Positions 15,538 through 40,964 of a stretch of DNA of 64,000 bases are shown here, piece by piece. This DNA comes from a virus (Duplodnaviria; Caudoviricetes): the IMG/VR virus record IMGVR_UViG_3300043464_002149; one strand, 5' to 3'. The position numbers and the translations under genes are program-made. The notes beneath the pieces are model-generated. The model was not told the origin of the DNA. It saw nothing but the letters and a program-made list of their open reading frames with translations, and did no database searches. Numbering within the stretch: the first letter of the stretch is position 1; each line of letters begins with the position of its first letter.

Positions 15538-16185
15538 TTAAATTATTCCTGTGAATGGAGATTCCCCTTTGTTTAGTCTTACTCTAAATGAATCGGATAA
15601 AATATATCTTTCATATAAGGTATCGTTTAGGTCCACACCAATATAATCTAAAATATCTTTAAGTGTTGTTTTATCCCTATTTACATATATATCCTCAAAA
15701 TATACTATTGGGTAACCCCTATCAGATATCTCATGTAATTTCTTAGATTCTTCATTAAATATATTTTTTCTATACTCAACGTGCCCCTCTTCAATACCAT
15801 CAAAATCATAGTATTGTCTTTTATGCCAAGTACTTGTTTTACCTTTAATTGCGTGATATGTAAAACTCTCACTTTGTGAGGTTTTATCTTTCCTATCTAA
15901 AATTATGATTTTTTCAAAATATTTAAAAAACCAATCCCAATATGCCTCGTCATTACCTATTAGTTCTTTTGGTCTATGAATTTCACTAAGAAATGTTTTT
16001 ATAAAAACATTGTTCTTATTATTATAAAAATCCGGACTGTAAACATTTCTGTTTAGTTTTTCATGTAAATATTGGTTGAATGGTTCGATGTGGCATATAT
16101 ATCCAATCGGTTCTAGATGCTCTCGTATTAAATGAAAAAGAGTTGTTGAGCCAGTTCGTTCACTTGTTAATATCGCTATTCTCAT
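15538..16185 (-). CDS. Sulfotransferase (P-loop 5'-PSB type)
   Basis: N-terminal LTSERTGSTTL 5'-PSB loop and IILDRKD 3'-PB-like strand. Confidence 0.7.
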   Translation of the reverse strand: MRIAILTSERTGSTTLFHLIREHLEPIGYICHIEPFNQYLHEKLNRNVYSPDFYNNKNNVFIKTFLSEIHRPKELIGNDEAYWDWFFKYFEKIIILDRKDKTSQSESFTYHAIKGKTSTWHKRQYYDFDGIEEGHVEYRKNIFNEESKKLHEISDRGYPIVYFEDIYVNRDKTTLKDILDYIGVDLNDTLYERYILSDSFRVRLNKGESPFTGII

Positions 16186-16916
16186 ATAATAGATTTAGAT
16201 CGTTTAACGACCCCATCAATATATCTATCAACAAATTCCACCAATTCCGGTGTTCTTGTTACTGCACAATAATCTAAATTCGTCTTATTTTTATATATTA
16301 ACTTAAAATCAACATTAAATTTATTTGACATATAATCTTCAAGTTCTTTTAAATTATTAAAATCAAACTGTTTAACAATAACTTTATCATTTGTAATCCA
16401 TTGATACTGTGAAACAAAACTAAAGATATGTACGGTATATCTTTCTATAAATCCCCCATCTATAGGGTATTCTTTTGAGATACCTAATTTATCAACTAAT
16501 TTAATTAGTAATGATTTTCTAGATTCAAGTGAGTTATATGCATTGCAAAATTCTAAATGATTTTCTTTTATAAAATTGATTATAAACTCATTACCTACGT
16601 TTTTAATTTTTTCGCCTAGAGTACTATTAATTGAGTTTACCATAGCCTCTACGAAATATTTCCAAGCAGATATGAATCTGTCTGTAGAATCTCTAATTAT
16701 GGCTATATATTCAAAATTAGTTCCAAATCTTTCTAATAAATCATTTATAGTTGAGTGGAGGTGTTTTTCCGTATTTTTATAATCCGACTTTAACTGATTC
16801 TCCCAAATCTTACTTGGATATTTTAAATCAAATTCATATTCAACGCATGTATGTTCCATAGACCAAGACGCGTTTTTAGGTATTGGTATAAATACCACTT
16901 TATCATCAATAACCAT
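16182..16916 (-). CDS. Sulfotransferase family 2-like protein
   Basis: FIPIPKNASWS and IIRDSTDRFISAW match the HIPKxAxxS and xRDPxxRxxSxY/W patterns. Confidence 0.7.
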   Translation of the reverse strand: MVIDDKVVFIPIPKNASWSMEHTCVEYEFDLKYPSKIWENQLKSDYKNTEKHLHSTINDLLERFGTNFEYIAIIRDSTDRFISAWKYFVEAMVNSINSTLGEKIKNVGNEFIINFIKENHLEFCNAYNSLESRKSLLIKLVDKLGISKEYPIDGGFIERYTVHIFSFVSQYQWITNDKVIVKQFDFNNLKELEDYMSNKFNVDFKLIYKNKTNLDYCAVTRTPELVEFVDRYIDGVVKRSKSII

Positions 16917-16926
16917 TTTATTTTTT

Positions 16927-17043
16927 TTACTGAGTTACGTCTGCGTATATGAGTGTTGCAACTTCTTGCATTATAGTTGCAACATTAGTGTTGGTTGTTG
17001 CGCTTGTTAATACAACTTCGCTAGATATTATTTTTGGTTTCAT
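16927..17043 (-). CDS. 38-aa small ORF
   Basis: Hand-translated MKPKIISSEVVLTSATTNTNVATIMQEVATLIYADVTQ; it fills the gap between genes and has an A/T-rich leader. Confidence 0.5.
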   Translation of the reverse strand: MKPKIISSEVVLTSATTNTNVATIMQEVATLIYADVTQ

Positions 17044-17065: not shown

Positions 17066-18601
17066 TTATTTCTGCGGTCCCGGTGAATCACAAAACCAAC
17101 ATTGGTCACAACACCAAACGGCACATGTCCATGAAGCACACCAACTAAAACAAGCACCATTGTGTTGTATAAATGTTAACCCGAGCGATTCATCAGCAAC
17201 TGGTAAAAATATATCATTTAATTCTACGTTTATGTCATATACTCTTCTAGTTACATAAACAATCCCCAGATTGATTATTTTAGATTTAATTAATGTATTA
17301 TTTACATAATCAAAAAATATAATTGAGTCATTTATTCTAAATTTATTAGTATAAGCAAATGTGGTTTCTAAGGTATCATATTCTTCAATCATCATTGAAC
17401 TTCCCGGTAAATCTTCATAAACTATACCATTTTCCAAAGTTACTTTAATCATTAATGATTCTCTTGTTTGACCACCTAAATCAATAACAGTTGATGACCC
17501 TGTCGAAAATGTGGTTAAATCAGATGAGAATACCCCTGAATTAATGTCAGGGATATACTGAACTTCTCCTGTTTCTGAAGTTTCATTTTCGGGAACCCAT
17601 GTTAAATTAATGGTTTTAATAAGATCGTTTACTAAAATTTCGTTAGGGTGTTTCAAAGTTCCGTCAGCATACAAAATTGGGGTGTCATCATCTAAAAAGT
17701 AACTTGGCCCAAAATTTCTAAATGTCGGGGATTTACTCATCCATAATGGTCTAGCGTCCTGATTCATTTTACCGTTAGAATCGTATGTGGTATCCCAACT
17801 ATTGAATTTAACAGGACTTGTCATTATGTATGAACCTAAATGTAAACAATCAAGATTACCTCCATATATAATATCTAAACTTCTGATTACCCCCATTTTA
17901 TCATTTACGATGTTTTCTGAATTTGTATGAAATTCTTCCATAAATTCATGATCCATTAATGAGCTTTTTAAGGTTTCGAGGTTAGCTAAAGAATCTATCT
18001 TGTAAAATTTAGGGTAGTCAATATAATTTGTGTTTGGAAATCTAGTTTTTACAATGTAATTTGGGGTTGTCCCTGGTGTTATATGTAATTCATTTAACTG
18101 GTCAATGTTTAATGACGGTTCTGATTCTGAATTATAGTATACATTTGGGGTATATGGTTTTTCTGATATTAACCTGTGAAAATTTACCTTATCTTTAGCA
18201 TATTCTTCATCCACAACAGCTGTAGTATCATAAGATGTTCTAATAATTAAAATACCATTTCCGTCTTCAATATGTGGCACCGTTATTGAATTTTTAGCAA
18301 CTTCATAATGTGTGAATGTACCATTAATTTCAGACATTATTTCTGACATTTTATCTTTTAAACTAACATTTATAGATGTAGTATCAAATACGTTTTCTTT
18401 CTCATTATTGATAAAATTACCGTCTGTTGATATAAAATGTAAATTAACAATTGAGTTGTCTAATAAAAATTGCTTAAAGGTTCCCCAATCCAAGTCAGGT
18501 ACAATTTTATTGTGAACGTCAACATTCGTATTTGTCTCAACTATTCGTAAGTCACCATTATCATCTTTTAAGAAGTCAGTGCCTAATATAAGTGCTTTCA
18601 T
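17066..18601 (-). CDS. Circularly permuted ATP-grasp-like domain + Hint domain + 30-aa Cys/Trp-rich C-terminal peptide
   Basis: N-terminal GTDF...LRIVETNTN and YIVKTRFP...FMEEF are ATP-grasp-like. Hint blocks are FLDDDTPILYADGTLK (A), RRVYDINVE (F) and IQHN (G), followed by GACFSWCASWTCAVWCCDQCWFCDSPGPQK. Confidence 0.7.
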   Translation of the reverse strand: MKALILGTDFLKDDNGDLRIVETNTNVDVHNKIVPDLDWGTFKQFLLDNSIVNLHFISTDGNFINNEKENVFDTTSINVSLKDKMSEIMSEINGTFTHYEVAKNSITVPHIEDGNGILIIRTSYDTTAVVDEEYAKDKVNFHRLISEKPYTPNVYYNSESEPSLNIDQLNELHITPGTTPNYIVKTRFPNTNYIDYPKFYKIDSLANLETLKSSLMDHEFMEEFHTNSENIVNDKMGVIRSLDIIYGGNLDCLHLGSYIMTSPVKFNSWDTTYDSNGKMNQDARPLWMSKSPTFRNFGPSYFLDDDTPILYADGTLKHPNEILVNDLIKTINLTWVPENETSETGEVQYIPDINSGVFSSDLTTFSTGSSTVIDLGGQTRESLMIKVTLENGIVYEDLPGSSMMIEEYDTLETTFAYTNKFRINDSIIFFDYVNNTLIKSKIINLGIVYVTRRVYDINVELNDIFLPVADESLGLTFIQHNGACFSWCASWTCAVWCCDQCWFCDSPGPQK

Positions 18602-18634: not shown

Positions 18635-19264
18635 TTAAATTAAACTCTTTGATTTTTTCACATATTCAAAGCCAACATTACCCGCAATAACAACTCTATC
18701 TTTTGTTGAATTTGGTGATTTGTCAGGTGAATGTGGTAAAAACCCTTCCATTATTAGTAGATCCCCCTCCTCAGGAAGATAATAATACCTATTTCCGTCA
18801 TTTCCCCCAATTATTAATGTACCTTCTGTATCTAGTAAATTATTTGGCATTTGAACATAATATACAAAAGTGTATGTTGGGTGAAAAGAATTAACGAGTT
18901 TTTGTAAATCAATGTGGTTGTGTAAAGTAACCTCGCCCCCTCTTTTAAAATCGTCTTGCTTTGGTTTTCCCTTTTTAACAATATTAATCCAGGAATTGAC
19001 GTTAGTTTTATTAAAAGGTGAAATGTCCACACTCCTTAATTCGTAACAACTTTGTACCCCAAATTTAATTATTTCTTCAATAGAATTGGTTGGTTTCATT
19101 TCGTTTTGAAAATCAAAGCTCGACCAATCTCCCATGTAAGCGTAGTTATCTTTTGGTGAGTATGAGCTTGATTTTAAAAATACATTAACATCATCAATGA
19201 CATTTATTGATTGTATTTTTGTTTTATATATGACAACGTTTTTTTCAAAAACTATTTCTTCCAT
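18635..19264 (-). CDS. 2OG-Fe(II) oxygenase-like protein
   Basis: HNH...FVYYV...EGDLLIMEGFLPHSP...RVVIAGN jelly-roll motifs. Confidence 0.7.
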   Translation of the reverse strand: MEEIVFEKNVVIYKTKIQSINVIDDVNVFLKSSSYSPKDNYAYMGDWSSFDFQNEMKPTNSIEEIIKFGVQSCYELRSVDISPFNKTNVNSWINIVKKGKPKQDDFKRGGEVTLHNHIDLQKLVNSFHPTYTFVYYVQMPNNLLDTEGTLIIGGNDGNRYYYLPEEGDLLIMEGFLPHSPDKSPNSTKDRVVIAGNVGFEYVKKSKSLI

Positions 19265-19268: not shown

Positions 19269-19559
19269 CTAAATTATGGTTTTTTTTTTGATTTTTAAAT
19301 GGTTCACGTAACTATCCTCAATAATTTTCCACTTACCTAATGGACATGAGCCATATTCATTTGTAAATATTTTTTCATTTATTGGGCACCCACAAGGGCC
19401 GCAATAATGCAACCATTCTTTGTTATGTATCCCTTCTTTTCTAAATTCACATTTTAAACAAAAATCGAGTCTTTCTTTTGCTAATTTTAATCCGGTCTCA
19501 TCGGGATTAAAAGTTATTATACCTAAATTAATAATTTCTATAGGATCGAATTTCATCAA
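19269..19559 (-). CDS. Small Cys-rich metal-binding protein (DUF6171-like)
   Basis: CLKC...CGPCGC...K...CPLGKW pattern. Confidence 0.6.
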   Translation of the reverse strand: MMKFDPIEIINLGIITFNPDETGLKLAKERLDFCLKCEFRKEGIHNKEWLHYCGPCGCPINEKIFTNEYGSCPLGKWKIIEDSYVNHLKIKKKTII

Positions 19560-20212
19560 ATTAACGTTTTTTTATTCCCATCCAATAAATTAATATTCCC
19601 TGCTACCGATATTCTTTCAACCCCATCACTAAAAAATGGTGAAACATAGTGAGTTAAGTATGATGGAAAAATAAACATTTCTCCGTTTGATGGTAAATGT
19701 GATATTTGTGTTATTGGTGAGATAAAAGAATTAACAATATTAATAAATTGATTATTATTTAGTTCATTTTTTTTTATATTTTGACCATACATAAAAGATA
19801 TACTACCATTTTTAAACCCCCTCTCAATGCTTGGCTCCGATTTAATTTTTTCAGGTATGTCTACATATATAACAAATGAAATGTCTGAGGAATGAAAATG
19901 TGGTGAGTTAAAATCTTTAGTTTTTTGAAAATTGATCCATAAATCTTCAAGATGATATTTGAAATTGTAATTTGGTTGTTTTCTGTGTTTCCCAATTTCA
20001 TTAATATAATTCTCAATAAATACAAAAATTCTATCCTTAAAATAGGAAACATTTTCTGAACTATACTTAAATGAGGAATTAAAAGATATTGATTTTATTT
20101 TTTCATTAATTAGTTGTTCATTTTTACCAACCAATAATAGTTCTTCACATAATTGCATATCGACATTAACGCTCATCAATTCTGGACCAAAATTATACTT
20201 TTTAAATTCCAT
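19556..20212 (-). CDS. 2OG-Fe(II) oxygenase-like protein (TIGR02466-like)
   Basis: WINFQ...NSPHFH...SFVIYV...GEMFIFPSYLTHYV...RISVAGN. Confidence 0.8.
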   Translation of the reverse strand: MEFKKYNFGPELMSVNVDMQLCEELLLVGKNEQLINEKIKSISFNSSFKYSSENVSYFKDRIFVFIENYINEIGKHRKQPNYNFKYHLEDLWINFQKTKDFNSPHFHSSDISFVIYVDIPEKIKSEPSIERGFKNGSISFMYGQNIKKNELNNNQFINIVNSFISPITQISHLPSNGEMFIFPSYLTHYVSPFFSDGVERISVAGNINLLDGNKKTLI

Positions 20213-20772
20213 TATATTAATGTTTTTTTATGATTTTCAATCTTCTTTAATTTTAACCAACTAACTAACGAATATCTAGTACCCGATTCTATTGGCATTA
20301 CTCTATGAAAGACGTTCGACGGGAAAATATATAAATTACCGGCACCAAATTCCATTTTAGTTTGTTTATTATTTATTATCAATTCAAAATCACCCCCAGT
20401 GTAATTTTCATTTAATTGGATTACAATAGTATAGAATCTATCCTTAAATATTGTGTCATTAGAGTCTATGTGCCAATCAAAATAATCTCCCACATTATAT
20501 TTTGTAAATTGAAATGTTTCAATAGAGGGTTCAAAACCTTTTATTTTAACTTTTTCCATTACTTTTGAAAGCGTTATATTATTAATATGTCCTAGGTCAT
20601 CAATAAATGCAACCTTTGATTTTCGAGTTTCTTTTTTATTTAATTTAATAAGCTCAATTTCGGAATATGTTTCAGCGTCTAACAAATCAAGTTCATCTAA
20701 ACATTTTTTTATTATCGCCCCACATTCTTCTTTAGGTAAAAATTCAGTAATGGTGTATATATTATTGATCAT
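20212..20772 (-). CDS. Prolyl-4-hydroxylase-like 2OG-Fe(II) oxygenase
   Basis: QFTKY...WHID...YTGGDF...FPSNVFHRV...GTRYSLVSW. Confidence 0.85.
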   Translation of the reverse strand: MINNIYTITEFLPKEECGAIIKKCLDELDLLDAETYSEIELIKLNKKETRKSKVAFIDDLGHINNITLSKVMEKVKIKGFEPSIETFQFTKYNVGDYFDWHIDSNDTIFKDRFYTIVIQLNENYTGGDFELIINNKQTKMEFGAGNLYIFPSNVFHRVMPIESGTRYSLVSWLKLKKIENHKKTLI

Positions 20773-20773: not shown

Positions 20774-20980
20774 TTATTTTTTTAACCCGAATTTTATCCA
20801 TTTATACCAAACCCTTTCATGTAAAAAATATATAATTGGTTTTAATACAAGTTCACCTAAACCAACCATACCAGCCCACTTTAATGGTAGTCCAGCAGAT
20901 ACTGTTAAGATTATTGTAGTTAAAGTACCTACAAATCTGTAACTAATACTTTTAGCTATGTGTCGTTTTACCTGTGGCAT
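20774..20980 (-). CDS. DUF2061-like small membrane protein
   Basis: KSISYRFVGT...YFLHERVW signature. Confidence 0.8.
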   Translation of the reverse strand: MPQVKRHIAKSISYRFVGTLTTIILTVSAGLPLKWAGMVGLGELVLKPIIYFLHERVWYKWIKFGLKK

Positions 20981-21317
20981 CTATTTCTCCTTTTCTAATT
21001 TTAGTTCCGCTTATTTCAGCAATTTCTGTAGGTGGTTCGTGGTATATTACTTCATACCCAACACCCCTACCATAATTAACAGATTCAATATCTGGGATAA
21101 TAGATATCATGATCTTATCCCAATTATTTTGAAAGAATGGTTCGTTTTGTAACATGAATAACACTTCTTGTGCTGTTTTGGGGTTATTTTCATCAACTTG
21201 CACATCTCTAATTGCTACCCAAACGTTTTTCCCTTTGTTTAATTGTTGGTTAATCAACCATTCGTGTCCAGCATGCCAATTTTGCCATCTCCCAATGTAA
21301 ATTGCATATTTTTTCAT
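20952..21317 (-). CDS. HxGH nucleotidyltransferase (cytidylyltransferase/ATP-sulfurylase superfamily)
   Basis: GRWQNWHAGH and ISGTKIR (HIGH/KMSKS-like) motifs. Confidence 0.75.
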   Translation of the reverse strand: MKKYAIYIGRWQNWHAGHEWLINQQLNKGKNVWVAIRDVQVDENNPKTAQEVLFMLQNEPFFQNNWDKIMISIIPDIESVNYGRGVGYEVIYHEPPTEIAEISGTKIRKGEIDATGKTTHS

Positions 21318-21748
21318 GGTAATATAATATTAAGTAATTTATTAGTGGTTTCTTCTATTGTTTGATTTGTGGTATCTAGATCCAAATAATTTTCAGTAGG
21401 TGGATCATAGTCATTAACTGCAAAATGTTCTCTACCTCTAATTTCGGTGGTGTAAACATAAATTTCTGTAACCTGATTTTCAGATTTAAAGTTTTCTCTT
21501 TGATCTTTATAGGGAGAAACTAATGAAACAACAACCGAATACCCCTTGATACTCAAGAACTTAGCAATATCCTGTGCTCTTTCGATGTTTTTACGCCTAC
21601 CTGCTTCGGAATAATCTTTATTTTTAAAAATATCACGTAGATCATCACCGTCAATATGAACGGTAGTTTCAGCTGGAAGATGTTTTATTAATTCTAGCGC
21701 TAAGGTTGTTTTCCCTGATCCGGGTTGACCTGTAAACCAATATATCAT
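21314..21748 (-). CDS. cysC: Adenylyl-sulfate (APS) kinase
   Basis: WFTGQPGSGKTT P-loop, IDGDDLR, RRKNIER, VSLVSPY, YDPP. Confidence 0.9.
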   Translation of the reverse strand: MIYWFTGQPGSGKTTLALELIKHLPAETTVHIDGDDLRDIFKNKDYSEAGRRKNIERAQDIAKFLSIKGYSVVVSLVSPYKDQRENFKSENQVTEIYVYTTEIRGREHFAVNDYDPPTENYLDLDTTNQTIEETTNKLLNIILP

Positions 21749-21784: not shown

Positions 21785-22930
21785 TTAAATCATACCTCTA
21801 TTATAGAACCTAAAACCAGTTACCTTTTCATATAATTTTTCACCCGGAGATAGGTTTGGTAACCCCAAATTCAAATCTTGGTTTTTAATTATAAAATGTT
21901 CATTGATTTTATATAACCAATCAACACCAAAATTATGTGCTATTTGACCAATAACAAGACATTGAATTATTGGTGACCATTTGTGATGACTTAAATGCCA
22001 TATACCGCCAAAATCATGATTAAAAAAGTCTTTTAAGCCATATAAACTTTCTATTGTATGCTCATTTCTTCTTAGATCTACACCACCACAACAATCACAA
22101 GTGAAATTTTTATCTAAATGGTTTTTAAAAGTTAATGGAAATGTAAAATCGTTTTCAAGATAGGTGCCACTTTTACGTTCTTGTAATATCTGGAAAAACC
22201 ACTTATCACATAAAAACGCTTCGTTATTTTTAATGCTATTATAATAATCATCACTTATCTCCATCAAATTTAGATGTATCATAAGTTGTTCCACATAGCA
22301 AGCCCCATAACCTTTATCATAGGAATCTATTTTTTCTTTGTTCTTATAATAATGATCTAATGATCTTTCGGTAGCTTCAGCGAATAATTCATAATCATTA
22401 ACACATAATAAATTCATATTAGGTACTTCCCCCACAAAGAAATTTTTAATTTTATTTTCACTGTGTTGATCTTTAAAATCATTAAATGGAAACCCATATG
22501 CATTCATTGAGCTAATTAAATAGTCATTGAATCCTTTTGGGGTTGTGTTTGGGCCCAGATCTGGAAAGTCCTTATGTGCATAAATGACTGGTAGATCAGA
22601 TTTGAAATCTATTTTTTTAGTTAACATTGTATCAATATCAATATGTAAAAATCTTTCAGACATCGCTTTAAAGACTTTCATTTTAACAACACTAAACGTA
22701 TTTACATCTGTTTTTGATAAAACATCAACATCAATGTTCTCATATGGTATCCCAATTTCTTGAATTTGTTTGGCTATAGTTTCATTGGTATATAATGAAA
22801 TCTTCCCGTAGTTCTTATTTGTAAAAAGAGTACTTAAGACCTGTGAATATATCATTTCTTTCCATATGATTTGAGTATATGGTATATCCAAATTAAAATT
22901 GCTTGGTATGTAGCTATGGACAATCTTCAT
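21785..22930 (-). CDS. DUF6734-like DxD protein (putative glycosyl/nucleotidyl transferase)
   Basis: LYTN, FLHIDIDT DxD motif, CYVEQ; related to the next ORF. Confidence 0.5.
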   Translation of the reverse strand: MKIVHSYIPSNFNLDIPYTQIIWKEMIYSQVLSTLFTNKNYGKISLYTNETIAKQIQEIGIPYENIDVDVLSKTDVNTFSVVKMKVFKAMSERFLHIDIDTMLTKKIDFKSDLPVIYAHKDFPDLGPNTTPKGFNDYLISSMNAYGFPFNDFKDQHSENKIKNFFVGEVPNMNLLCVNDYELFAEATERSLDHYYKNKEKIDSYDKGYGACYVEQLMIHLNLMEISDDYYNSIKNNEAFLCDKWFFQILQERKSGTYLENDFTFPLTFKNHLDKNFTCDCCGGVDLRRNEHTIESLYGLKDFFNHDFGGIWHLSHHKWSPIIQCLVIGQIAHNFGVDWLYKINEHFIIKNQDLNLGLPNLSPGEKLYEKVTGFRFYNRGMI

Positions 22931-23871
22931 TAAATTATTTTCTTATTAAATTTACCAATTTCTTTTTTATATTCATCAACCCTATATTTTCTATATTCTT
23001 CGTTAAGTTTTAATGCGTGTTTATTAAACCATACATGTTCATAATTTAAATTTTCAACGTGGTCTATTCTGTTGGGGTCTTTCAACCAAAATAAAGCTTT
23101 ACCTGGTGCTGGTGCATCACCTATAGTGTGTGATTCAGAATATGACATATATATATTATTCTCAATACTCTCCACTTTAGCGTTTAACTTTCTAATAGCA
23201 TAACCTAGTATTCCTTGATCTGCAATTAACCATAACCATTCTGGAATATACTCATATTCTCTTGTGATTATATCTAAATGTCTTCTTAAATAATCGTCCC
23301 TTAATGACTCACTATTCATAAAAATAAATGATGTATTTGGTATAAACATGTTTTGATTAAAATCTTCAATTCCACCAATTCTATTAATTTGATTTTCAAA
23401 AACAAAAAACTCGCCTCTTTGAATTTCCCATTGTGTATGAACCAAATCGTAATTCCACACCCAACTAGGCATTTCACTTCTAACAATGAAATCTAAATCT
23501 AGAAATAGATATGGTACTGGCTCTTTACCCATAACAATAGATTTACCGGTAGTCCAAAATCTACCCGGTTCAATGTATGAGTATTCTTTATTGAATGTTT
23601 CTAAAACATCCGTATCTACTTCATCCCATAATCCCAACATTCCTTTTTTCTTATAAAATTCATACCCAACATTATCAGTGTATAATTTTGTTACCCCTAC
23701 ATACTTTTTCGCGTTTCTTACTGCTAATTCCTGTATAACTAATTCATAATCAACAATATCATATTCATCGTCGGGTAAATCAAACATTTTCATTCTATTA
23801 TACCCTTGAGCATCATTCTTGTGAAAAAATGGTGCGGTCCAATTAACAAAGATTACTTTTAAATTATTCAT
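22930..23871 (-). CDS. DUF6734-like DxD protein (putative transferase)
   Basis: KLYTD, W..GK, PYLFLDLDF, ADQGIL. Confidence 0.5.
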   Translation of the reverse strand: MNNLKVIFVNWTAPFFHKNDAQGYNRMKMFDLPDDEYDIVDYELVIQELAVRNAKKYVGVTKLYTDNVGYEFYKKKGMLGLWDEVDTDVLETFNKEYSYIEPGRFWTTGKSIVMGKEPVPYLFLDLDFIVRSEMPSWVWNYDLVHTQWEIQRGEFFVFENQINRIGGIEDFNQNMFIPNTSFIFMNSESLRDDYLRRHLDIITREYEYIPEWLWLIADQGILGYAIRKLNAKVESIENNIYMSYSESHTIGDAPAPGKALFWLKDPNRIDHVENLNYEHVWFNKHALKLNEEYRKYRVDEYKKEIGKFNKKII

Positions 23872-27037: not shown

Positions 27038-27038
27038 A

Positions 27039-28061: not shown

Positions 28062-29371
28062 GTTAAACTTGGATAGCCTTTTTTCTCCATTAAAAATGTC
28101 TTATCATCAATTGTAGATTCAATCTCATCAAACCAATCTTTATACTGTGGATTTACTTCTAAAAATGACTCATTTCTTCTATTATCTAATATATATGTTG
28201 ATCTAAATAAGTGTCTTCTGGCATCTTGAATATCCCCTTCAAATGGTGTATACAAGTGTTTTTCCCAACCATCCTTTGCTTGTTTAACAATACTTCTAGT
28301 ATAACTGTCACCAATTGTTTCTATGTAGGTATTCAGTTTATTAATCAAACTAGTTTTTAAGTTATCTGGTAAAATTCTAATATCATACCACATCGGAGAT
28401 GTTAATAAATTATTTAAAGAAACCGTACTAGGGTTGACGCCAATACTTATAGCCATATCAATTAATTCATTGATGTGAAATATGTTTAAGATACTAATTG
28501 TGGGAGATATGTGGACTTCCATTCCTTTATCAACACAAGATTTAATGTTTTGATAAACCGCATTCCATTTTGTTCCATTTCTAACAACTTCAGCTAATTT
28601 ACCAACAGCATCTAAAGAAGCGAATAGAAAAATTCTACCTTTTGGATCTTTTAAGAAGTGATCCCATAAACCATGTAAATCCCATTTTTTAAAATGTATA
28701 TGGCTGAAATTTGTGTTGTATCTAATTCTAACATCAGTTCTACCTGCAGCTATTAATTTTTCCAAAATAATATAATGTTCATCCATTATAAGCGGCTCTC
28801 CACCAGCAAAATAAATTTCTTCAACCTCATTTATAAATTGATCAACATATTTGAATATATCTTCTTTACTATCAATATTAAAATTGATCACCCCGTTGTT
28901 ATTTACGTGAGTTCCAAATAGTGCAGCTTCATCATCATACCATTTACTACTGGAAAATATGCCACACATTCTACACTTAAAATTACACATATTGGACCAT
29001 CTGAAATCCCAATATTTTAGTACGAACTTATCATTATGCCCAGTTTCCTTATTTGTCTGGCTTATTAATTCATTAATACCATCATTGAAAAAATAGTTAT
29101 GTGTTTTTCTTGGGCTTAATAAACCGCTATCCTCAATTAAAAAACATCTTTCGCATAGTTTAGGTCTGTTACCGGATAACATATCTTTTCTAATGCTCAT
29201 CATCTGTTCATTGTTCCAGATTTCTTCTAATGTATTATCTTTAGTATTCCCTATAGGCATACCATATGGTGCCATACAGCAAGGGTATATGTCACCATTG
29301 GGTTGTATATTTAAATGTATCCAAGGTAGTACACAAAATGTGTTTGATATATTTTCTGAATTATTAATCAT
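28058..29371 (-). CDS. Radical SAM protein with N-terminal twitch/SPASM-like domain
   Basis: CVLPW...PCC...CERC, then CNFKCRMC and AGGEP. Confidence 0.9.
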   Translation of the reverse strand: MINNSENISNTFCVLPWIHLNIQPNGDIYPCCMAPYGMPIGNTKDNTLEEIWNNEQMMSIRKDMLSGNRPKLCERCFLIEDSGLLSPRKTHNYFFNDGINELISQTNKETGHNDKFVLKYWDFRWSNMCNFKCRMCGIFSSSKWYDDEAALFGTHVNNNGVINFNIDSKEDIFKYVDQFINEVEEIYFAGGEPLIMDEHYIILEKLIAAGRTDVRIRYNTNFSHIHFKKWDLHGLWDHFLKDPKGRIFLFASLDAVGKLAEVVRNGTKWNAVYQNIKSCVDKGMEVHISPTISILNIFHINELIDMAISIGVNPSTVSLNNLLTSPMWYDIRILPDNLKTSLINKLNTYIETIGDSYTRSIVKQAKDGWEKHLYTPFEGDIQDARRHLFRSTYILDNRRNESFLEVNPQYKDWFDEIESTIDDKTFLMEKKGYPSLT

Positions 29372-30603
29372 ATTATTTTTTTATTTAAAATATCTTTTAT
29401 TTTTGGGAACGTTTGTAGGAAGCTTTCACTTCTTATTTTATCAACTTCGCTTGTTACTTTTAAAAACGTGTTCATTTCTCCATTCTCTTTAGCATTGTAA
29501 TAAACACTATACAAATCATTATAATATTCATCACTAATTTTACCTTTTATTTCATCTATTTTTTTTCTTCTTACCTCTATTGGAAATAAATTAGCATTTT
29601 GATATGCTGGTGAAAAGACATGATTAGGAACTAATCTATATATTTTTCCAGTACCATCTAATTTATACAATCCCTCTGCAATTAGAAATTGAGCTAGTTC
29701 TTCAATATATAAAAAATTGAAAGCATTAACCGTTTGTGTAACTGATATATAAAAATCATATTCGTTTAGAAATCTTTTTAAGTTTGTTATTGTAAGCTCC
29801 CAATTACTTAAACTTCTAATAAAAGTGTTTCTATCTTTAACATCATCGATACTAACAGATATGGTGACATTGTTAAATGATTTTAATTTTTCTAACGTTG
29901 GTTTAATTGAATCAAAATTGTAATTAGCATTGGTTATGTAAGAAATTGTGGCATTTTTTGCGTACCCCTCACCAACCATTTTTTCTATCAGATAGTTGTG
30001 TTTTGGTACAAGAAATGGTTCACCACCACTAACCTGTATTAAATTTAAATCTGGGGTGTGTTTTACCAAATCGTCATAAAATTCTGCTTTGTCAGTCCAA
30101 TCATAACTTGTCCCCTCACTGTTTTTTAGAACATCATATGATGAAGGTAATGGTACAATATCTTTTAATTTATAATAATCCGTAATCCACGATGTACTCG
30201 ATTCAGCATTACAGGATCTGCATTTAAAGTTACAGTAATTACCCAGCCTTAATTCAACGTTCGTTAGATTTGGTTTAATGCTACCATCTTCATTTATTGA
30301 AATGTCAATAGGTGTTCTGGATTCCTTAATTCTTTTTGATATGTCGCCGTTCTGTTCTACATTATAACAAGTTAAACAAGCTTTAGGTATTTCACCATTT
30401 ACCATTTGCTTTCTAACTTTTTTAAAACTATCGGAATTGATAATTTTTTCAACACCTTGTTCAATGTTAAGCATTTTACCGTCTGTTTTAGCGAAAGTTT
30501 CATCAGCCCCCCAATTAGCTTCACAACATACAGAACAATGACCATGTGGGTGTACACTAATGTGGTTCCATAATAAGTTGCATATGAATTTTTTATTTTC
30601 CAT
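29368..30603 (-). CDS. Radical SAM protein with N-terminal twitch/SPASM-like domain
   Basis: CNLLW...VCC...CLTC, then CNFKCRSC and SGGEP. Confidence 0.9.
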   Translation of the reverse strand: MENKKFICNLLWNHISVHPHGHCSVCCEANWGADETFAKTDGKMLNIEQGVEKIINSDSFKKVRKQMVNGEIPKACLTCYNVEQNGDISKRIKESRTPIDISINEDGSIKPNLTNVELRLGNYCNFKCRSCNAESSTSWITDYYKLKDIVPLPSSYDVLKNSEGTSYDWTDKAEFYDDLVKHTPDLNLIQVSGGEPFLVPKHNYLIEKMVGEGYAKNATISYITNANYNFDSIKPTLEKLKSFNNVTISVSIDDVKDRNTFIRSLSNWELTITNLKRFLNEYDFYISVTQTVNAFNFLYIEELAQFLIAEGLYKLDGTGKIYRLVPNHVFSPAYQNANLFPIEVRRKKIDEIKGKISDEYYNDLYSVYYNAKENGEMNTFLKVTSEVDKIRSESFLQTFPKIKDILNKKII

Positions 30604-30606
30604 AAT

Positions 30607-31947
30607 CTATAATCTATTAAACCAAGTAATAAATTCGTTTGGCATGTATTCATCAATTGGCTTATTTCTTCTTATTGAATATTGATAAACGAATTTCTTT
30701 AAATCGTTTACTTTGTTTTCTCTACTGTCACTATCTTCATAAGACACGTCCACTTGTCTTAGGTATAAGACCAACCTCTCAAAATGATTTACTTCCCATT
30801 CTTCCATCCACGGTTTATTAAGATTAACCACAGATTCGATTTTACTTGCCAAGTCATTTTTGATATCCTGATCAATCATATTAATACTTTGAAAAGATGG
30901 GAATCTTAAAATGTTTACACTCATTGAGAATGTATGAATGTTATTGAATTCTTTTCTCCACTTTATAATTTCTTTTAAAAATAGATCAACAGTCCATATA
31001 CTTAAAACGCTGATAGTCATCATGATATTTAATCTTCTAACTTTTTTAGACCTCTCAACTTTAAACATATTTTCTTTCCACAAATCCCACTTAAATCCGT
31101 CTCTAACAAATTCCTGGTGTTTACCAAAACATTCTGCAGATGTATATATGTCTAATGATTTAAACTTATCAGATGAGTTAAGTAACTTATAAAGTCTTTC
31201 ATCATCCATAATGAGATTACTATTAACAGCAAAATCAAATTTATCATTATTACAAACGTCCAATAATTTCCAAAAAGACGGGCTTCTAGAAGGTTCTCCA
31301 CCGGATACCCGTAATTCTAATAATTCACCTCTAATTTCATCAAACCAATTAAAAAAATTATTTATATAAATGTTGTCTTCGTTTTTATTACCAAACGGCA
31401 TAGCGATCGACCCATCACTTTTATATGTTAATCCTCCATTAGTCTTCATCCCTTCATATTCCCCGTTAGTTAAAATATCTTTAGACCAGGTGGAACTAAA
31501 TTCTGAATTACAGTAACTACAAGCCAAATTACAAAGGTTATCAAAACAAATTTCAACAGTTTTAGGAATAACATTAGCATCCCACGGCATTGTTTTTATT
31601 TTTTCAATATCCTCCTTTGTATATCTAGATGTTTGATACATCCTATCGCTAAAAATATTTGGATTATCCTTTGCAGCATCTTCAACTCTCCAACAATATG
31701 AACATTCACTGGGTCTAATCCCGTCTAACATTTCTTTTCTTCTTTCTTTCTTGAAATTGGTGTTGTGTAATGCTGAAGGGTTATTATTTAGTTCTTCCAG
31801 TGGAATTGAATGTGCTAAAGGATGGTGACAAGACGCAGTCCTACCATTACCTAACCATATAGACACATTATACCACTTTGCAGCACAAAAAGATGAGGAA
31901 AACTCATCCATTAATTTTTTTATTTCAGTATATGGTATGTTAGACAT
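30607..31947 (-). CDS. Radical SAM protein, CxAKW...SCHHP subfamily
   Basis: CAAKW...SCHHP...CSYCW, then CNLACSYC and SGGEP. Confidence 0.9.
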   Translation of the reverse strand: MSNIPYTEIKKLMDEFSSSFCAAKWYNVSIWLGNGRTASCHHPLAHSIPLEELNNNPSALHNTNFKKERRKEMLDGIRPSECSYCWRVEDAAKDNPNIFSDRMYQTSRYTKEDIEKIKTMPWDANVIPKTVEICFDNLCNLACSYCNSEFSSTWSKDILTNGEYEGMKTNGGLTYKSDGSIAMPFGNKNEDNIYINNFFNWFDEIRGELLELRVSGGEPSRSPSFWKLLDVCNNDKFDFAVNSNLIMDDERLYKLLNSSDKFKSLDIYTSAECFGKHQEFVRDGFKWDLWKENMFKVERSKKVRRLNIMMTISVLSIWTVDLFLKEIIKWRKEFNNIHTFSMSVNILRFPSFQSINMIDQDIKNDLASKIESVVNLNKPWMEEWEVNHFERLVLYLRQVDVSYEDSDSRENKVNDLKKFVYQYSIRRNKPIDEYMPNEFITWFNRL

Positions 31948-32588
31948 TAAATGATCTTCTGTTTTGGCGCAACATTATTAAATGTGTCGATTGATTTATT
32001 AACATATTTTGGATCTTCAATTAAAATTCCATGGTTCCCATTACCACTTTTATCAAAGGTTTTAAATTTAGAATTTTGTTGGAAATCAATATTAATATAC
32101 ATATTTTTCTTTGTATAATCAAATGATGAATCATATATTATTATTTGATTGATCTCCCCGTTAAACCATTTTTCATTTTCATTATTATACGGATAAAGAG
32201 CGCCAATTAGTATCTTTTTATTTGAATAATCAACAATATTACCCTTAATTTTTGAGTCCATTAATATATCATTGAAATAAAGACTAATATACTCAGAAAC
32301 AGTCACTTTTATATCCATTATTTGTCTAATATCATCAACTACAAATCTAACATCATTGTAGATGTGTCCTGTTGTATACCAAACAAACTTAACAATATTT
32401 GGGAACTCTAAAAATAGCCCCATAGGGTAACCGTCTTTAGAGATCACACAAGATTCATTCTCGATAAAATCAATTAACTTAAAATTAGCGTGTATTGTAA
32501 AATCATTCTCTATTGAGGAATAATCTTTAATATTCGTATTATTCTTTGTTTTATTTGGAATGAAATATGATGTTTTATTGAATATCAT
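31947..32588 (-). CDS. LamG/concanavalin-like domain protein
   Basis: IGA...WFNGEINQIIIY...DKSGNGNHG. Confidence 0.65.
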   Translation of the reverse strand: MIFNKTSYFIPNKTKNNTNIKDYSSIENDFTIHANFKLIDFIENESCVISKDGYPMGLFLEFPNIVKFVWYTTGHIYNDVRFVVDDIRQIMDIKVTVSEYISLYFNDILMDSKIKGNIVDYSNKKILIGALYPYNNENEKWFNGEINQIIIYDSSFDYTKKNMYINIDFQQNSKFKTFDKSGNGNHGILIEDPKYVNKSIDTFNNVAPKQKII

Positions 32589-33957: not shown

Positions 33958-33960
33958 TTT

Positions 33961-34542
33961 CTATATTTTATGTAAGAAGTTACAATTGTTTGTTAAATCG
34001 TAACTTTTATTGTGTATAAACTTATCAAATGTATGCTCCGATATTAATACATCATCTTTCTTAATAGATAGATAAGAAAGAACACCATCAAAGTAATTTA
34101 AATTGAAACCATTCTTGGGAAAATTACCGGAACCGAAAATGATATGTGGTCTTTCATCACTAACCAACTTTGTACTCAAATCAATATCAAATAATAACTC
34201 ATCATTTATAGATAGTTTTATATTAAAACCACTTTTTATTATTTCTAAGCTATATTTTTTATTTGGCACCCATTGATAATTTTTGGTTAAATATTTTGTA
34301 TCATTTCCTTCCTCACTATAAACCATCAACAAACCGTGGCTTTCAATATCAATCCCAAAATATGTTGGTAACTTAGCGAACAGAGTCATTTTTTCATTAA
34401 CAATGTTAGATAATTTAAATTCCAATGAAAAATTGAAATCACCTTCGTAATCAAATATTTTATTACTTGGGTATTCAATAAAATTATCGACAAGAAAGTC
34501 TGGCCACATTACCCAAATATTATCTTTATTTATTTTTAACAT
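33961..34542 (-). CDS. LamG/concanavalin-like domain protein
   Basis: FNFSLEF...IIFGSG...YFDG...YDLTNNCN. Confidence 0.55.
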   Translation of the reverse strand: MLKINKDNIWVMWPDFLVDNFIEYPSNKIFDYEGDFNFSLEFKLSNIVNEKMTLFAKLPTYFGIDIESHGLLMVYSEEGNDTKYLTKNYQWVPNKKYSLEIIKSGFNIKLSINDELLFDIDLSTKLVSDERPHIIFGSGNFPKNGFNLNYFDGVLSYLSIKKDDVLISEHTFDKFIHNKSYDLTNNCNFLHKI

Positions 34543-38496: not shown

Positions 38497-39920
38497 ATTC
38501 CTACATTAACGTGTAAAATTTTATTATTATGTGTTTTACCATGTTCAATGAAATTTAAATCAGATAAACCATCTTCTTTCATTAAATGGGTGTTTAGTGA
38601 AACTTCATTATGAAACCTTAATTGGTTCCACCTTGTTGCTTGATCTTTCCAACGGTTCCCTAAAAAACCATTTTCTTCATGTTTTAAAGATTTGAATAAA
38701 GATCTTCTTCTATAAGGTATTTTTACTTCTTTATAGTTAGTATATTCTTGACTTATTATTTCGCAATTCACTATTTTACCATCATTACCATTATTTGTTA
38801 AATCTTTTAATTTGTAATTTTCGATATGATCCGCTTCATAATATATTTTAAGCGAGTTTTGTGAATGATATTTTCCAAATGATTCGTTTAAATAATGATT
38901 TGTATTATATGATAATTCTTTAATTTCTTCATCACTTAACATTTCATCATAATAAGCAAAAGAATCTATTTTCCCTTTAAAAAAATTAGGTATCTTCTCT
39001 CTGTCTGGTTTACCCACACCTAAGTAAAAATTTGGTTCTTTTCTGTAAAAATATAATTTTTTAAATTGTTCGGTTTGACCTAAAAATTCACCGTCTTGAT
39101 ATACTTTAATTATATTGTTTTCTCTATCTAAAACAATCACCATATTTGTTTTATAGTTTGTTTTGATTTTGGAATTAATGAAGTATGGATTATATGAGCT
39201 ATCAAAAGCACAAAAATTATATCTCATAAATGAATTGTAGCAAATAGCAAAATCCCAACCAGGAATGCTAAACACAGTAAATTCATCAGATTCTTTGGTA
39301 TGATCCAAAACAATTTTTTCTGGATAAAATGAAATAAAAAAAGTTGCATTATTATTTAAATCTATTGTGTTTTTACATTCAACATATGCATCAACACCAT
39401 TAAACATTAACGCTTTATCACTCTTAGTCAAGTTTTTAAATTCAAGAGTATCTAAATCTAAACCATTTACTACACATCTTAATAAAAGTTCTGTATCTTC
39501 ATAACCCCACCCCCAATACTTGTTTGAGTATCCGTTAATTTTTTCGAAATCTTCAATGGTAAACATCGTAACCCCACCAAAATATTCATCAAATATTTCT
39601 CTCTTTTTCTCACCTTCTTCTAGTTTAAAATCAGTTGCAAGATGTAATGGTTTTTTTGAATATGAATAATCAACATTTATTGGTAACATATCAACATCAT
39701 GAAAAACAATGTAGTCACAATTTAATATTTTTGCATAGGTATATCCTATGTTCAATAACATACCTCTATTAAATTGTTTAGCATTGTCCTGATTAATTAC
39801 TATAATCTCATAGTTAATTTCCTTATTTTTAAAATACTTCGCCATGTGACTTGAAAATAACCTCAAATCACGCTGTCTGTTTCTATAAGGAACTATGATA
39901 CCAAGTTTGTGTTTATCCAT
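38493..39920 (-). CDS. GT7-like glycosyltransferase with inserted LamG domain
   Basis: VPYRNR, FNRGMLLN, HDVD, FGGV, GYSNKYWGWGYED; LamG insert FNGVD...FKGKID...LTNNGNDG. Confidence 0.85.
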   Translation of the reverse strand: MDKHKLGIIVPYRNRQRDLRLFSSHMAKYFKNKEINYEIIVINQDNAKQFNRGMLLNIGYTYAKILNCDYIVFHDVDMLPINVDYSYSKKPLHLATDFKLEEGEKKREIFDEYFGGVTMFTIEDFEKINGYSNKYWGWGYEDTELLLRCVVNGLDLDTLEFKNLTKSDKALMFNGVDAYVECKNTIDLNNNATFFISFYPEKIVLDHTKESDEFTVFSIPGWDFAICYNSFMRYNFCAFDSSYNPYFINSKIKTNYKTNMVIVLDRENNIIKVYQDGEFLGQTEQFKKLYFYRKEPNFYLGVGKPDREKIPNFFKGKIDSFAYYDEMLSDEEIKELSYNTNHYLNESFGKYHSQNSLKIYYEADHIENYKLKDLTNNGNDGKIVNCEIISQEYTNYKEVKIPYRRRSLFKSLKHEENGFLGNRWKDQATRWNQLRFHNEVSLNTHLMKEDGLSDLNFIEHGKTHNNKILHVNVGI

Positions 39921-40116
39921 TAATAGTAGGGTCTTTTGGTTTTGTTGTGTCGTGCCACTCGGATAAGTAATATTGAATTCTATCGCTCCATTCCTTTTTA
40001 TCTATTTCTTCAAACCAAATCGTTAGTGCATCTAATGAATTAGCGATCTTTTCAAGTGCTTTTACTTTTCTTTCTTCTAACTTTTGAAGTTGTTCTTCTT
40101 TTTCTGATTTTGTCAT
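39913..40116 (-). CDS. Hypothetical protein (67 aa)
   Basis: Co-oriented ORF overlapping both neighbours. Confidence 0.55.
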   Translation of the reverse strand: MTKSEKEEQLQKLEERKVKALEKIANSLDALTIWFEEIDKKEWSDRIQYYLSEWHDTTKPKDPTING

Positions 40117-40964
40117 ATCGATATTATTTTTTTTATTAGTTTATCCCATTGTTTATATCTTTTGAATTCTACCTGGCCATTACTGGTTTCAAACATAAAC
40201 TCAGGATTATTTAAATTTATTTTAAATTTACTTTTTACTAGTTCTTTATACATTATACGATACTCATCAGAGTATGAATATTCTTTGTTAACATCAGCAA
40301 CTGCTTTTATTCTTTCTATTGATGTTTTATCCCATTTAAAGTGGTGTACTTGAACAAATGAGTGTGGGTTAATTAATGGATGATTCCATCCTTGCCACCT
40401 CCAAGTAGTTTGCCCATTAATTTTCGCATAATGTTGTCCAGATGTGATTTCAATATACCCCTTCATTATACAAGCTTTATTTGGACACGCTTTACTCATT
40501 GGATATCTAAAAAATCCCATGTTTGGAAACTGTTTAAAGATATTTTCATCATCTTTTAATTCAACAAATTCACCATGTGGTCCAATTCTATCAATAAACC
40601 CACCTCTAACTAAATCCCAACCGTATTCATTACAATTTGAAATTAATTTTTTTAAATTATCGTTAGGGTATAAATGAAACTCATCAATATCGGCAATAAT
40701 CCACCAATCATCAGGGTTTTTAGATTTTATTAAATTGTATAATGCGGTGACCTTTTCCCAATCAAAAACGCGGTCTTCAATTGTTTTAACAATTTTAACA
40801 TTCTTGTAATTTTTAATGATATTCTTAACATCATCAATTAATGTGGGTTGTATAAGTGATTGATATACAATGAATTGTATTTCATCAACATACTTGGTGT
40901 AGTGATCAATAAAATGTGGGATAAGACTTGTTCCGTGACCTACAACTGAAAGTGCTCTAATCAT
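40113..40964 (-). CDS. GT2-like glycosyltransferase (Glyco_tranf_2_4-like)
   Basis: FIDHY, WWIIADIDEF DxD motif, K...GQH, HHFKW. Confidence 0.7.
   Translation of the reverse strand: MIRALSVVGHGTSLIPHFIDHYTKYVDEIQFIVYQSLIQPTLIDDVKNIIKNYKNVKIVKTIEDRVFDWEKVTALYNLIKSKNPDDWWIIADIDEFHLYPNDNLKKLISNCNEYGWDLVRGGFIDRIGPHGEFVELKDDENIFKQFPNMGFFRYPMSKACPNKACIMKGYIEITSGQHYAKINGQTTWRWQGWNHPLINPHSFVQVHHFKWDKTSIERIKAVADVNKEYSYSDEYRIMYKELVKSKFKINLNNPEFMFETSNGQVEFKRYKQWDKLIKKIISI

Follow-up and report, generated by a model that had tools for sequence, protein, structure and literature searches.

A short C-terminal tag shared by unrelated enzymes of a phage gene cluster, with a possible role as an address label

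Short C-terminal labels that gather unrelated enzymes are found in eukaryotic organelles, in Fe-S delivery and in bacterial nanocompartments. The PTS1 peroxisomal signal and the cargo-loading peptides of encapsulins both serve as labels at the C-terminus of clients or cargo. The clamp-binding tails of replication proteins in T4 and bacteria, and the acidic tails of T7 gp2.5 and gp4, dock on one hub protein. We know of no short C-terminal enzyme-gathering label in a phage-encoded modification pathway, and our literature search found no paper describing the tag reported here. A further comparison is offered by the CIA targeting complex and its C-terminal tripeptide, [LIM]-[DES]-[WF]-COO- (PMC10245660).

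The phage tag resembles the PTS1, CIA and encapsulin labels in being a very short motif at a free C-terminus, carried by unrelated folds, that gives its bearers a common address or partner, as we predict for the phage case. Its sequence is unrelated to theirs, with no Gly-Ser-Leu core of the encapsulin GSL type in K-[STK]-[LI]-I, and it is limited to the enzymes of one cluster; the comparison concerns a possible mode of action, not membership. With the clamp-binding and T7 tails it shares the pattern of unrelated phage proteins bearing one short C-terminal peptide and, it is predicted, a common hub, while differing in sequence and in sitting on tailoring rather than DNA enzymes.

Tagged and untagged genes of the window

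Within the window (the whole 64,000-nt stretch of DNA that was analysed, from an uncultured T4-like phage), K-[ST]-[LI]-I is the ending of five genes at 16.2-20.8 kb, and K-K/Q-I-I that of three further genes. These genes are listed here with two others whose endings approach the tag.

15538..16185, minus strand: 215-aa protein, ends FTGII, a hydrophobic pair without a basic residue; next start 76 nt away
16182..16916, minus strand: sulfotransferase-like enzyme, 244 aa, ends KRSKSII (Pfam Sulfotransfer_2, E 1.8e-5)
16185-16196, minus strand: tag codons of the sulfotransferase-like gene
18635..19264, minus strand: 209-aa protein, probably a 2OG oxygenase, ends KSKSLI; next start 33 nt away
19269..19556, minus strand: Cys-rich protein, 95 aa, ends KKKTII
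19556..20212, minus strand: 2OG-FeII_Oxy_5 oxygenase, 218 aa, ends NKKTLI (Pfam E 8e-13)
20212..20772, minus strand: 2OG-FeII_Oxy_3 oxygenase, 186 aa, ends HKKTLI; the Pfam domain stops at residue 173
21785..22930, minus strand: DUF6734 protein, 381 aa, ends NRGMI, a weak form of the tag; its L002 orthologue ends DKGMI
22930..23871, minus strand: unknown-family protein, 313 aa, ends NKKII; its L002 orthologue (88% identity) ends SKKLI
29368..30603, minus strand: radical SAM/SPASM enzyme, 411 aa, ends NKKII
31947..32588, minus strand: unknown-family protein, 213 aa, ends KQKII

The tag is a property of families as well as of single genes. More than 50 homologues of the sulfotransferase-like enzyme, down to 48% identity, end in K-[ST]-[IL]-[IL]. 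In the AF2 model of this enzyme (pLDDT 87), the final three residues score below 50 and lie beyond the terminal helix, placing the tag at the extreme, flexible C-terminus. All members of the family of the 209-aa protein are tagged (11/11); the protein itself has a weak 2OG-FeII_Oxy_5 match, and its L005 orthologue a weak PF13640 match. The Cys-rich protein has seven database homologues (60-99% identity), and 7/7 end in K-[KEN]-K-[TS]-[IV]-I. Homologues of the 2OG-FeII_Oxy_5 oxygenase keep a K-x-[LI]-[LI] ending to ~40% identity and lack it below 35%, while 23/26 members of the 2OG-FeII_Oxy_3 family are tagged and the cyanophage S-RSM4 homologues of that enzyme are not. Conservation in orthologues, which the initial annotation of this DNA had named as a check on the motif, is thereby borne out: in three unrelated families the tag persists to about 40-50% identity. 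The 215-aa protein at 15538, whose L002 orthologue ends in FTGLI, is by sequence a degenerate member of a tagged family (12/17 tagged).

The C-termini quoted in the initial annotation are all present on the minus strand (16182, 18635, 19269, 19556, 20212, 22930, 29368, 31947, 15538, 21785, 27039 and 40113), but the motif is narrower than was claimed. The five core genes and the three K-K/Q-I-I genes stand. A spread to LamG and GT-like enzymes does not: the LamG/GT7 proteins at 37099 and 38493 end in NCKMK and NVGI, and the GT2-like protein at 40113 (KIISI) has Ser at position -1. Nor does the radical SAM protein at 27039 fit, since its ending (HNLTI) has no basic residue nearby; its 40% identical L005 relative ends in KKSLI. 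Among the radical SAM genes of the window, the claim holds for the enzyme at 29368 and fails for the other seven (1/8 tagged), and 7/21 members of the 29368 family carry the tag. Most radical SAM, LamG and GT genes of the window are thus untagged, and the tag is not on every tailoring enzyme.

Also untagged are the sulfate-activation genes, which together span 20774..21748 on the minus strand.

20774-20980, minus strand: DUF2061 membrane protein, untagged (Pfam; family 1/11 tagged)
20952-21317, minus strand: 121-aa cytidylyltransferase-like protein, untagged (Pfam; family 0/11 tagged)
21314-21748, minus strand: APS kinase, untagged (Pfam; family 0/7 tagged)

Frequency, consensus and level of selection

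The tag is far more frequent at gene ends than elsewhere, both in the window and in related loci. In the window, K[ST][LI]I ends 5/51 genes and occurs internally twice in 20,791 positions (P ~1e-11), and 15/31 genes at 15.5-42.5 kb have a C-terminal Ile where 2.8 are expected. We then counted a loose and a strict pattern over 379 genes in 14 non-redundant related loci. The loose tag is found at 128/379 gene ends (34%), compared with 1.7% of internal positions and 4.4% of positions before off-frame stops; the strict tag is found at 41/379 gene ends (11%), compared with 0.037% and 0.06%, respectively, an enrichment of ~290-fold.

The consensus is [K/R]-x(0-2)-K-[S/T/K]-[L/I]-[I/L]-COOH. Of the 128 loose tags, 102 finish with Ile and 26 with Leu, in every case right before the stop codon. 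At position -2, 60 have S/T, 40 have Lys and 8 have Asn. Position -3 is Lys in 79/128 tags, and Lys is also the commonest residue at -4 and -6. Tag residues showed no lineage-specific co-variation; all lineages share one consensus, in keeping with a single conserved reader.

The related loci contain at least 13 BLAST-separate families with the tag, in each case on nearly all members: oxygenases, sulfotransferase-like enzymes, some radical SAM enzymes, the Cys-rich protein and several unknowns. The diversity of folds noted initially is therefore real at this scale, but less so in the window, where 3/5 core genes are 2OG oxygenases. Families follow an all-or-none rule: the precursor-like protein and the small peptide described below lack the tag, and so, very nearly, do the sulfate-activation families, among which the DUF2061 family is the one with a tagged member (1/11). 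In a complete 238-kb relative, G003, tags are concentrated at 115-123.5 kb, which is the cluster; outside it, one radical SAM gene ending in KSLI and the adjacent gene ending in QTLI, 20 kb off, are the only carriers. As a control, we took a T4-like locus that has a homologous oxygenase and lacks the precursor gene: of its 46 genes, 1 is tagged.

A motif at gene ends could also arise at the nucleotide level, from A/T-rich translation re-initiation, slippery A-runs, RNA processing or recombination between gene cassettes, with the peptide a by-product. The genome is ~30% G+C with genes that often overlap, and 34% of tagged genes have an A-run of at least 7 within their final 30 nt, compared with 10% of untagged ones. 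Two thirds of tags, however, have no A7 run. For K, S, T, L and I, tag and internal codon usage do not differ (all p >0.05), with Ser encoded by AGT (33%) as well as by TCN, and the five S/T codons reported earlier for the window (TCT, AGT, ACC, ACG, ACA) are as claimed. The final two positions accept hydrophobics only (L, I, F, M, V); K, N and Y, which are just as A/T-rich, are not accepted. Distance to the next start has no bearing on the tag rate (41% in overlapping gene pairs, 43% at gaps of 31-60 nt), and tags also occur at gaps of 62-104 nt; the wide gaps pointed out in the window are real, although they measure 33 nt (18635) and 76 nt (15538) rather than 34 and 77. Because orthologues conserve the tag, its codon usage is that of internal positions, its rate does not depend on the gap and the strict motif is rare before off-frame stops, selection at the protein level, rather than a by-product of gene overlap or A-rich start regions, is supported by these sequence comparisons, in agreement with the initial annotation. 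The nucleotide-level explanation is disfavoured, and we consider it highly improbable.

An untagged precursor-like gene at the centre

The initial annotation overlooked that the tag marks enzymes around an untagged Hint precursor-like gene (17066-18601) and a small peptide gene.

16927..17043, minus strand: conserved 38-aa peptide gene, untagged, directly after the precursor gene
17066..18601, minus strand: precursor-like protein, 511 aa, untagged (family 0/13 tagged)

The precursor-like protein consists of a ~300-aa N-terminal domain with a D-x13-E-x-N motif, a Hint fold ending in His-Asn (Foldseek match E 1e-7; profile against the PDB E 2.8e-8) and a 30-aa Cys/Trp-rich tail. Its family, whose Cys-rich tails are hypervariable, forms 384 clusters at 50% identity, and in 66/150 representatives the His-Asn precedes a variable tail of 8-60 aa that contains 4 or more Cys. 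These are the traits of a RiPP-like precursor, namely a conserved leading part, a hypervariable core and a release mechanism, the cleavage itself being predicted. A counterpart of the small peptide follows the precursor gene in all loci whose junction was read, namely L002, L005, L008, L011-L015 and L019-L022. In L039, the precursor is only 21% identical, yet its immediate neighbours are tagged. L040 has a distant precursor homologue (1129 aa) among GT7-LamG and radical SAM genes, and 1/20 of its gene ends fits the loose tag, so a precursor-like gene is not always accompanied by tagged enzymes.

In RiPP pathways, the usual arrangement places a recognition domain on the enzyme and a leader peptide on the precursor. 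The phage cluster shares with these pathways many co-located tailoring enzymes, one precursor, a hypervariable Cys-rich end and, as predicted here, self-cleavage. It differs in that the short peptide is on the enzymes and the large folded domain on the precursor; recognition would run in the opposite direction. No RRE or PqqD-like domain matched in the tagged enzymes at E <=0.01.

What the tag may do

The broad idea of a docking, targeting or degradation code fits the evidence; of its forms, we find a docking label the most probable and a degron its strongest competitor. We put the probability at roughly 0.55 that the tag is an address label read by one common partner, marking the enzymes of a single precursor-centred pathway. 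The 2OG oxygenases, sulfotransferase-like enzymes, some radical SAM enzymes, the Cys-rich protein and the unknowns would then act on one pathway built around a self-cleaving Hint precursor-like protein with a hypervariable Cys-rich tail and the downstream small peptide. A putative conserved partner would bind the free hydrophobic C-terminus and the preceding lysines, bringing every tailoring enzyme to the same place. As this partner we favour the folded N-terminal part of the precursor, alone or in complex with the small peptide, which would reverse the usual ribosomal peptide arrangement.

More speculatively, the precursor itself may collect the tailoring enzymes by their tags, with its N-terminal domain binding or chemically engaging their C-terminal carboxylates. 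That domain begins with the D-x13-E-x-N motif, which resembles the Mg-binding triad of ATP-grasp ligases, enzymes that act on carboxylates. Hydroxylases, sulfotransferases and radical SAM enzymes would be held beside the Cys-rich tail until Hint release. We regard this version as tentative; if true, it would describe a ribosomal-peptide pathway that owes its organisation to tags on the enzymes and to a folded leader able to remove itself.

The same peptide could instead be a degron that, like the signal of MuA, is recognised by an AAA+ protease (ClpXP, for instance) of the host or, occasionally, of the phage. Tailoring enzymes would then be cleared or remodelled at a fixed point in infection. 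The MuA C-motif-2 signal RRKKAI has at least two basic residues before a small or hydrophobic end (PMC5143411, PMC12723719). The phage tag resembles it, with a basic run, a hydrophobic last residue and an unstructured C-terminus, and this likeness to a known protease signal counts against an address label. Two hydrophobics, usually preceded by Ser, Thr or Lys, set the phage tag apart, as does its occurrence on 10-15 co-encoded enzymes rather than on one regulator. A consensus that is constant across lineages would suit a conserved host reader, and the related phage G002 encodes a true ClpP (E 2e-56), but the complete relative G003 has none. The restriction to the enzymes around the precursor is hard to explain when the co-expressed APS kinase and cytidylyltransferase-like proteins are never tagged, and a destabilising tag kept on 10-15 enzymes over deep divergence would be less economical than transcriptional timing. 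By analogy with MuA, we hold a degron to be possible but doubtful. Retention at the inner membrane, in a phage-made compartment or in the capsid, through the lysines and hydrophobic end, strikes us as unlikely. It accords with a net charge of +1.8 over the last 8 residues (-0.2 for internal 8-mers), with the small DUF2061 membrane protein conserved beside the cluster, and with the precedent of C-terminal cargo peptides in encapsulins and microcompartments. The DUF2061 gene, however, lies outside the cluster in L008, and four to six conserved residues are too few to make an amphipathic membrane helix. Over the last 11-18 residues, the helical hydrophobic moment is ordinary, being equalled by 28-34% of internal segments, which also separates the tag from the amphipathic helices of microcompartment cargo. 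Nor is a shell gene seen in the cluster: Pfam matches of cluster genes from the window, L002, L005 and L008 include no shell-like family, and the sole HK97-type gene found, the T4-like capsid gene gp23, lies well away from the cluster in G003.

The class I PDZ pattern first proposed for the tag, X-[ST]-X-hydrophobic-COOH read by a PDZ protein or tail-specific protease, describes the five core tags of the window, including their hydrophobic last residue with a free carboxylate. It fails across the related loci, where under half of the tags (60/128) have S/T at position -2. A phage-encoded reader of the proposed kinds is not seen either: the related phage genomes G002 and G003 (the latter complete) have no PDZ, PDZ_2, PDZ_6, Peptidase_S41 or TPR_8, with no match to PF00595, PF13180 or PF17820 at E <=1, while the same PDZ/S41 searches, run on 14 control genomes, recovered these families in 11-14 of them. 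Most bacterial PDZ proteases are periplasmic, whereas inspection of their N-termini showed the tagged enzymes to be without signal peptides. We consider a PDZ ligand very unlikely.

The tag is simple, at four to six residues, and present on at least 13 enzyme families in widespread uncultured aquatic T4-like phages, where it is tied to a large family (384 clusters) of putative self-cleaving proteins with hypervariable Cys-rich ends. Should it recruit enzymes to the precursor, it would represent a new way to organise peptide or protein tailoring and provide a ready-made portable tag for engineering such pathways. A degron would be interesting too, since the enzymes would then carry a timer for the whole pathway.

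The I-x-I anchor of small heat-shock proteins was also considered and rejected as a parallel, the tag's hydrophobics being adjacent (-1 and 0) rather than spaced as hydrophobic-x-hydrophobic. A phage Hsp20 adjoins the cluster in L005 and L008 and carries its own I-K-V or L-K-L motif.

The tag within the window

All long ORFs of the window (~30% G+C) lie on the minus strand. Megablast with window positions 15.5-24 kb and tblastn with the 511-aa Hint-containing protein, which we call the precursor, found no match among isolated phages. The related uncultured contigs are T4-like, and a complete 238-kb relative, phage genome G003, carries a gp23-type capsid gene and lacks psbA. The parts of the window that concern us here are:

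Window flanks: very large fibre-like genes
15.5-23.9 kb: oxygenase/sulfur group, with 2OG-Fe(II) oxygenases, a sulfotransferase-like enzyme, APS kinase, DUF2061 and DUF6734
16927-17043 (-): 38-aa peptide gene, directly 3' of the precursor gene and below standard ORF-list length
17066-18601 (-): 511-aa precursor
24-42 kb: radical SAM/GT group, with eight radical SAM genes, LamG-containing GT7 enzymes, a GT2-like enzyme and a methyltransferase

The initial annotation had noticed that unrelated putative tailoring enzymes share a C-terminal ending, or tag, with the core K-[ST]-[LI]-I, and the C-termini, Ser/Thr codons and intergenic gaps that it quoted were all found where it placed them. K[ST][LI]I forms the C-terminus of 5/51 window genes and occurs internally just twice among 20,791 positions; between 15.5 and 42.5 kb, 15 of 31 genes end in Ile, versus 2.8 expected. 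We defined a loose tag as K/R somewhere in positions -5 to -2, L/I/M/F/V at -1, and I/L at 0. Nine genes of the stretch originally described carry it (16182, sulfotransferase-like; 18635; 19269, a Cys-rich 95-aa protein; 19556, a 2OG-FeII_Oxy_5 oxygenase; 20212; 21785; 22930; 29368; 31947), and beyond the cluster there is a single match, at 3649. The endings HNLTI (27039), KIISI (40113) and NVGI (38493) and those of the other LamG/GT7 enzymes miss even the loose definition, so the spread of the tag to LamG and GT-like folds that had been claimed does not hold. Most genes of the 24-42 kb module lack the tag, which therefore marks out a sub-pathway and not the whole of tailoring.

Enrichment and conservation across related loci

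We retrieved 14 non-redundant related loci and called their ORFs by a simple longest-ORF rule, which leaves C-termini unaffected by the choice of start codon. Each locus contains a run of consecutive tagged genes, flanked by untagged genes encoding hsp20, UvdE, peptide deformylase, carbamoyltransferase and fibres. Pooled over the 14 loci, the loose tag ends 128/379 genes, versus 1.7% of internal positions and 4.4% of positions ahead of off-frame stops, an enrichment that bears out the original observation. The strict form, K[ST][LI][LI], ends 41/379 genes, versus 0.037% and 0.06%, respectively. Lys is preferred at positions -6, -4 and -3. Of the 128 loose tags, 44 have S at position -2, 40 have K and 16 have T; position -1 is L in 63 and I in 47, and position 0 is I in 102 and L in 26.

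The tag is also conserved among orthologues in the oxygenase, sulfotransferase-like and Cys-rich families. Homologues of oxygenase 19556 from 88% down to ~40% identity all terminate in K-x-[LI]-[LI], which falls in the same final column of the alignment, and those below 35% have other C-termini. More than 50 sulfotransferase-like proteins, down to 48% identity, end in K-[ST]-[IL]-[IL], and a homologue at 30% identity ends in LSLI. The Cys-rich 95-aa family keeps the ending in 7/7 homologues. When all locus proteins were grouped into families by BLAST clustering, tagging proved to be all-or-none by family. Nearly every member carries the tag in at least 13 families. Among these are the Cys-rich and sulfotransferase-like families, two families of oxygenases, a family of 329-417 aa with no assigned function (5/5 tagged) and several others whose function is unknown; radical SAM proteins of one family (340-355 aa) have it in relatives (locus L005 and G003). 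Four families are essentially untagged:

511-aa precursor: 0/13 tagged
121-aa cytidylyltransferase-like protein: 0/11 tagged
APS kinase: 0/7 tagged
DUF2061: 1/11 tagged

Tagged enzymes likely act on a macromolecular substrate, unlike the suppliers of activated sulfate. Genome-wide, the loose pattern is near background in the complete G003 (21/316 ORFs), with 8 of the 21 matches in a 115-123.5 kb cluster. Two further matches, in a radical SAM gene (KSLI) and the adjacent gene for a 468-aa protein (QTLI) at G003 94.3-96.9 kb (L027:14330-16937), lie 20 kb off the main cluster, and therefore the tag travels with an enzyme class, not with a locus. The tag is absent from the homologous oxygenases of cyanophage S-RSM4, and a T4-like control locus that lacks the precursor gene has 1 tag in 46 genes. 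Locus L040 has a very distant homologue of the precursor whose GT7-LamG and radical SAM neighbours are untagged.

Selection on the tag and its possible meanings

The initial annotation had argued for selection on the protein rather than an artefact of gene overlap, and codon usage, residue choice, gap independence and A-run counts agree on this. Codons for K, S, T, L and I are used inside the tag as they are inside the same genes, and the tag Ser is encoded by both AGT and TCN. The last two positions are filled by hydrophobic residues from several codon families and never by K, N or Y, whose codons are just as A/T-rich. The tag rate is 43% before gaps of 31-60 nt versus 41% before overlaps, and tags also occur with gaps of 62-104 nt. 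A signal at the nucleotide level could draw on the A-runs found at 34% of tagged versus 10% of untagged ends, but such runs are expected from the Lys codons and are absent from two thirds of tags. Taken together, these features argue for selection on amino acids, and we give a nucleotide signal almost no credence. AF2 models the sulfotransferase-like enzyme (pLDDT 87) with a helix close to its end and the last three residues disordered beyond it. As a C-terminus, the tag is free and flexible, with basic residues preceding hydrophobic ones. Literature searches turned up no earlier account of it.

We favour a docking or address label as the meaning of this ending, with a probability of roughly 55%. 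Ranked second, and on balance unlikely, is a degron of the type by which MuA is delivered to a protease (PMC5143411, PMC12723719): the related phage genome G002 encodes a true ClpP (E 2e-56; L035, G002 128.3-128.9 kb), but ClpP is absent from the complete G003. Targeting to a membrane or compartment is less probable again, as an amphipathic-helix test was negative. The proposed class I PDZ ligand fares worse still and seems very improbable, given that position -2 is variable and that PDZ and S41 domains are absent from G002 and G003. A search of the same two genomes for TPR_8 was likewise empty, so that the suggested check for a phage-encoded PDZ or TPR reader came out negative; one of 84 precursor homologues (alignment A3) has a Pfam PDZ match, at an E value (0.0017) that is about chance level for 84 scans. 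A label for cofactor (iron) delivery, comparable to the CIA tripeptide and to MoxR/VWA metal insertion (PMC13036017), was also considered; we discounted it, as the sulfotransferase-like enzyme, which bears the best-conserved tag, needs no metal. The I-x-I groove of Hsp20 was dropped as a binding site because the tag spacing is wrong.

A permutation test found no lineage co-variation of tag residues (P 0.23-0.67), and the consensus is the same in all lineages, which points to a single conserved reader. The preferred candidate docking partner would be the precursor complex; a single complex prediction of the precursor (84-row alignment) with the sulfotransferase-like enzyme (26 rows) gave a median score of 0.21, against a mark of 0.32, and shifts the odds of binding in neither direction. 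In place of a ClpP, G003 encodes a MoxR-type AAA+ ATPase with a CbbQ/NorQ C-terminal domain at 76.7-78.0 kb (L026:16725-18041). ATPases related to this type contact their partner's C-terminus (PMC13036017). This ATPase and the ClpP of G002 are both candidates to consider as tag reader.

The precursor-like protein and neighbouring genes

Approximately residues 300-480 of the precursor adopt a Hint fold, with Foldseek matches to Hedgehog and inteins (E 1e-7) and a profile match to the KlbA intein (E 2.8e-8). The last two residues of this fold are almost invariably His-Asn, and a tail rich in Cys and Trp comes after them. The family comprises 384 clusters at 50% identity, and in 66 of its best 150 representatives the tail behind the His-Asn is hypervariable and contains four or more Cys; other members have a C-terminal endosialidase-type chaperone domain or a second intein-like Hint in place of the Cys-rich tail. 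In GTDB genomes, neither pattern scans for the family nor a search with A2, an alignment of precursor homologues, found a relative. AF2 on a 13-row alignment reached pLDDT 54, with the Hint part alone usable.

At the N-terminus lies D9-x13-E22-x-N24, in which E22 and N24 do not vary among 84 homologues and whose spacing is that of the Mg-binding triad of ATP-grasp ligases. This triad is normally near the end of the fold; its N-terminal position here suggests a possible permuted ligase. Weak signals for ATP-grasp are language-model neighbours (scores 0.88-0.92), RimK matches in 3/84 members (E 0.055) and a biotin carboxylase match to the E-x-N stretch (E 0.5).

The 38-aa peptide, whose first half is Thr/Ser-rich, has a 28-40-aa counterpart after the precursor gene in every locus where the junction could be read (L016 starts too late). 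Its possible roles are those of a second substrate and of a small subunit.

The 121-aa cytidylyltransferase-like protein (20952-21317, -) is 79% identical to its counterpart in locus L008, versus 25-40% for nearby genes. Its gene adjoins APS kinase, and it may therefore be a small sulfate adenylyltransferase-like enzyme. In the radical SAM genes at 25844-37102 (-), Pfam positions place the SPASM segment N-terminally, ahead of the radical SAM core, the opposite of the usual order in radical SAM enzymes. Three tandem paralogues of 368-377 aa at 4459-7842 (-) each have the C-terminus SGHCGWR-x, an ending that recurs 3' of a large fibre gene in L013 and L015.
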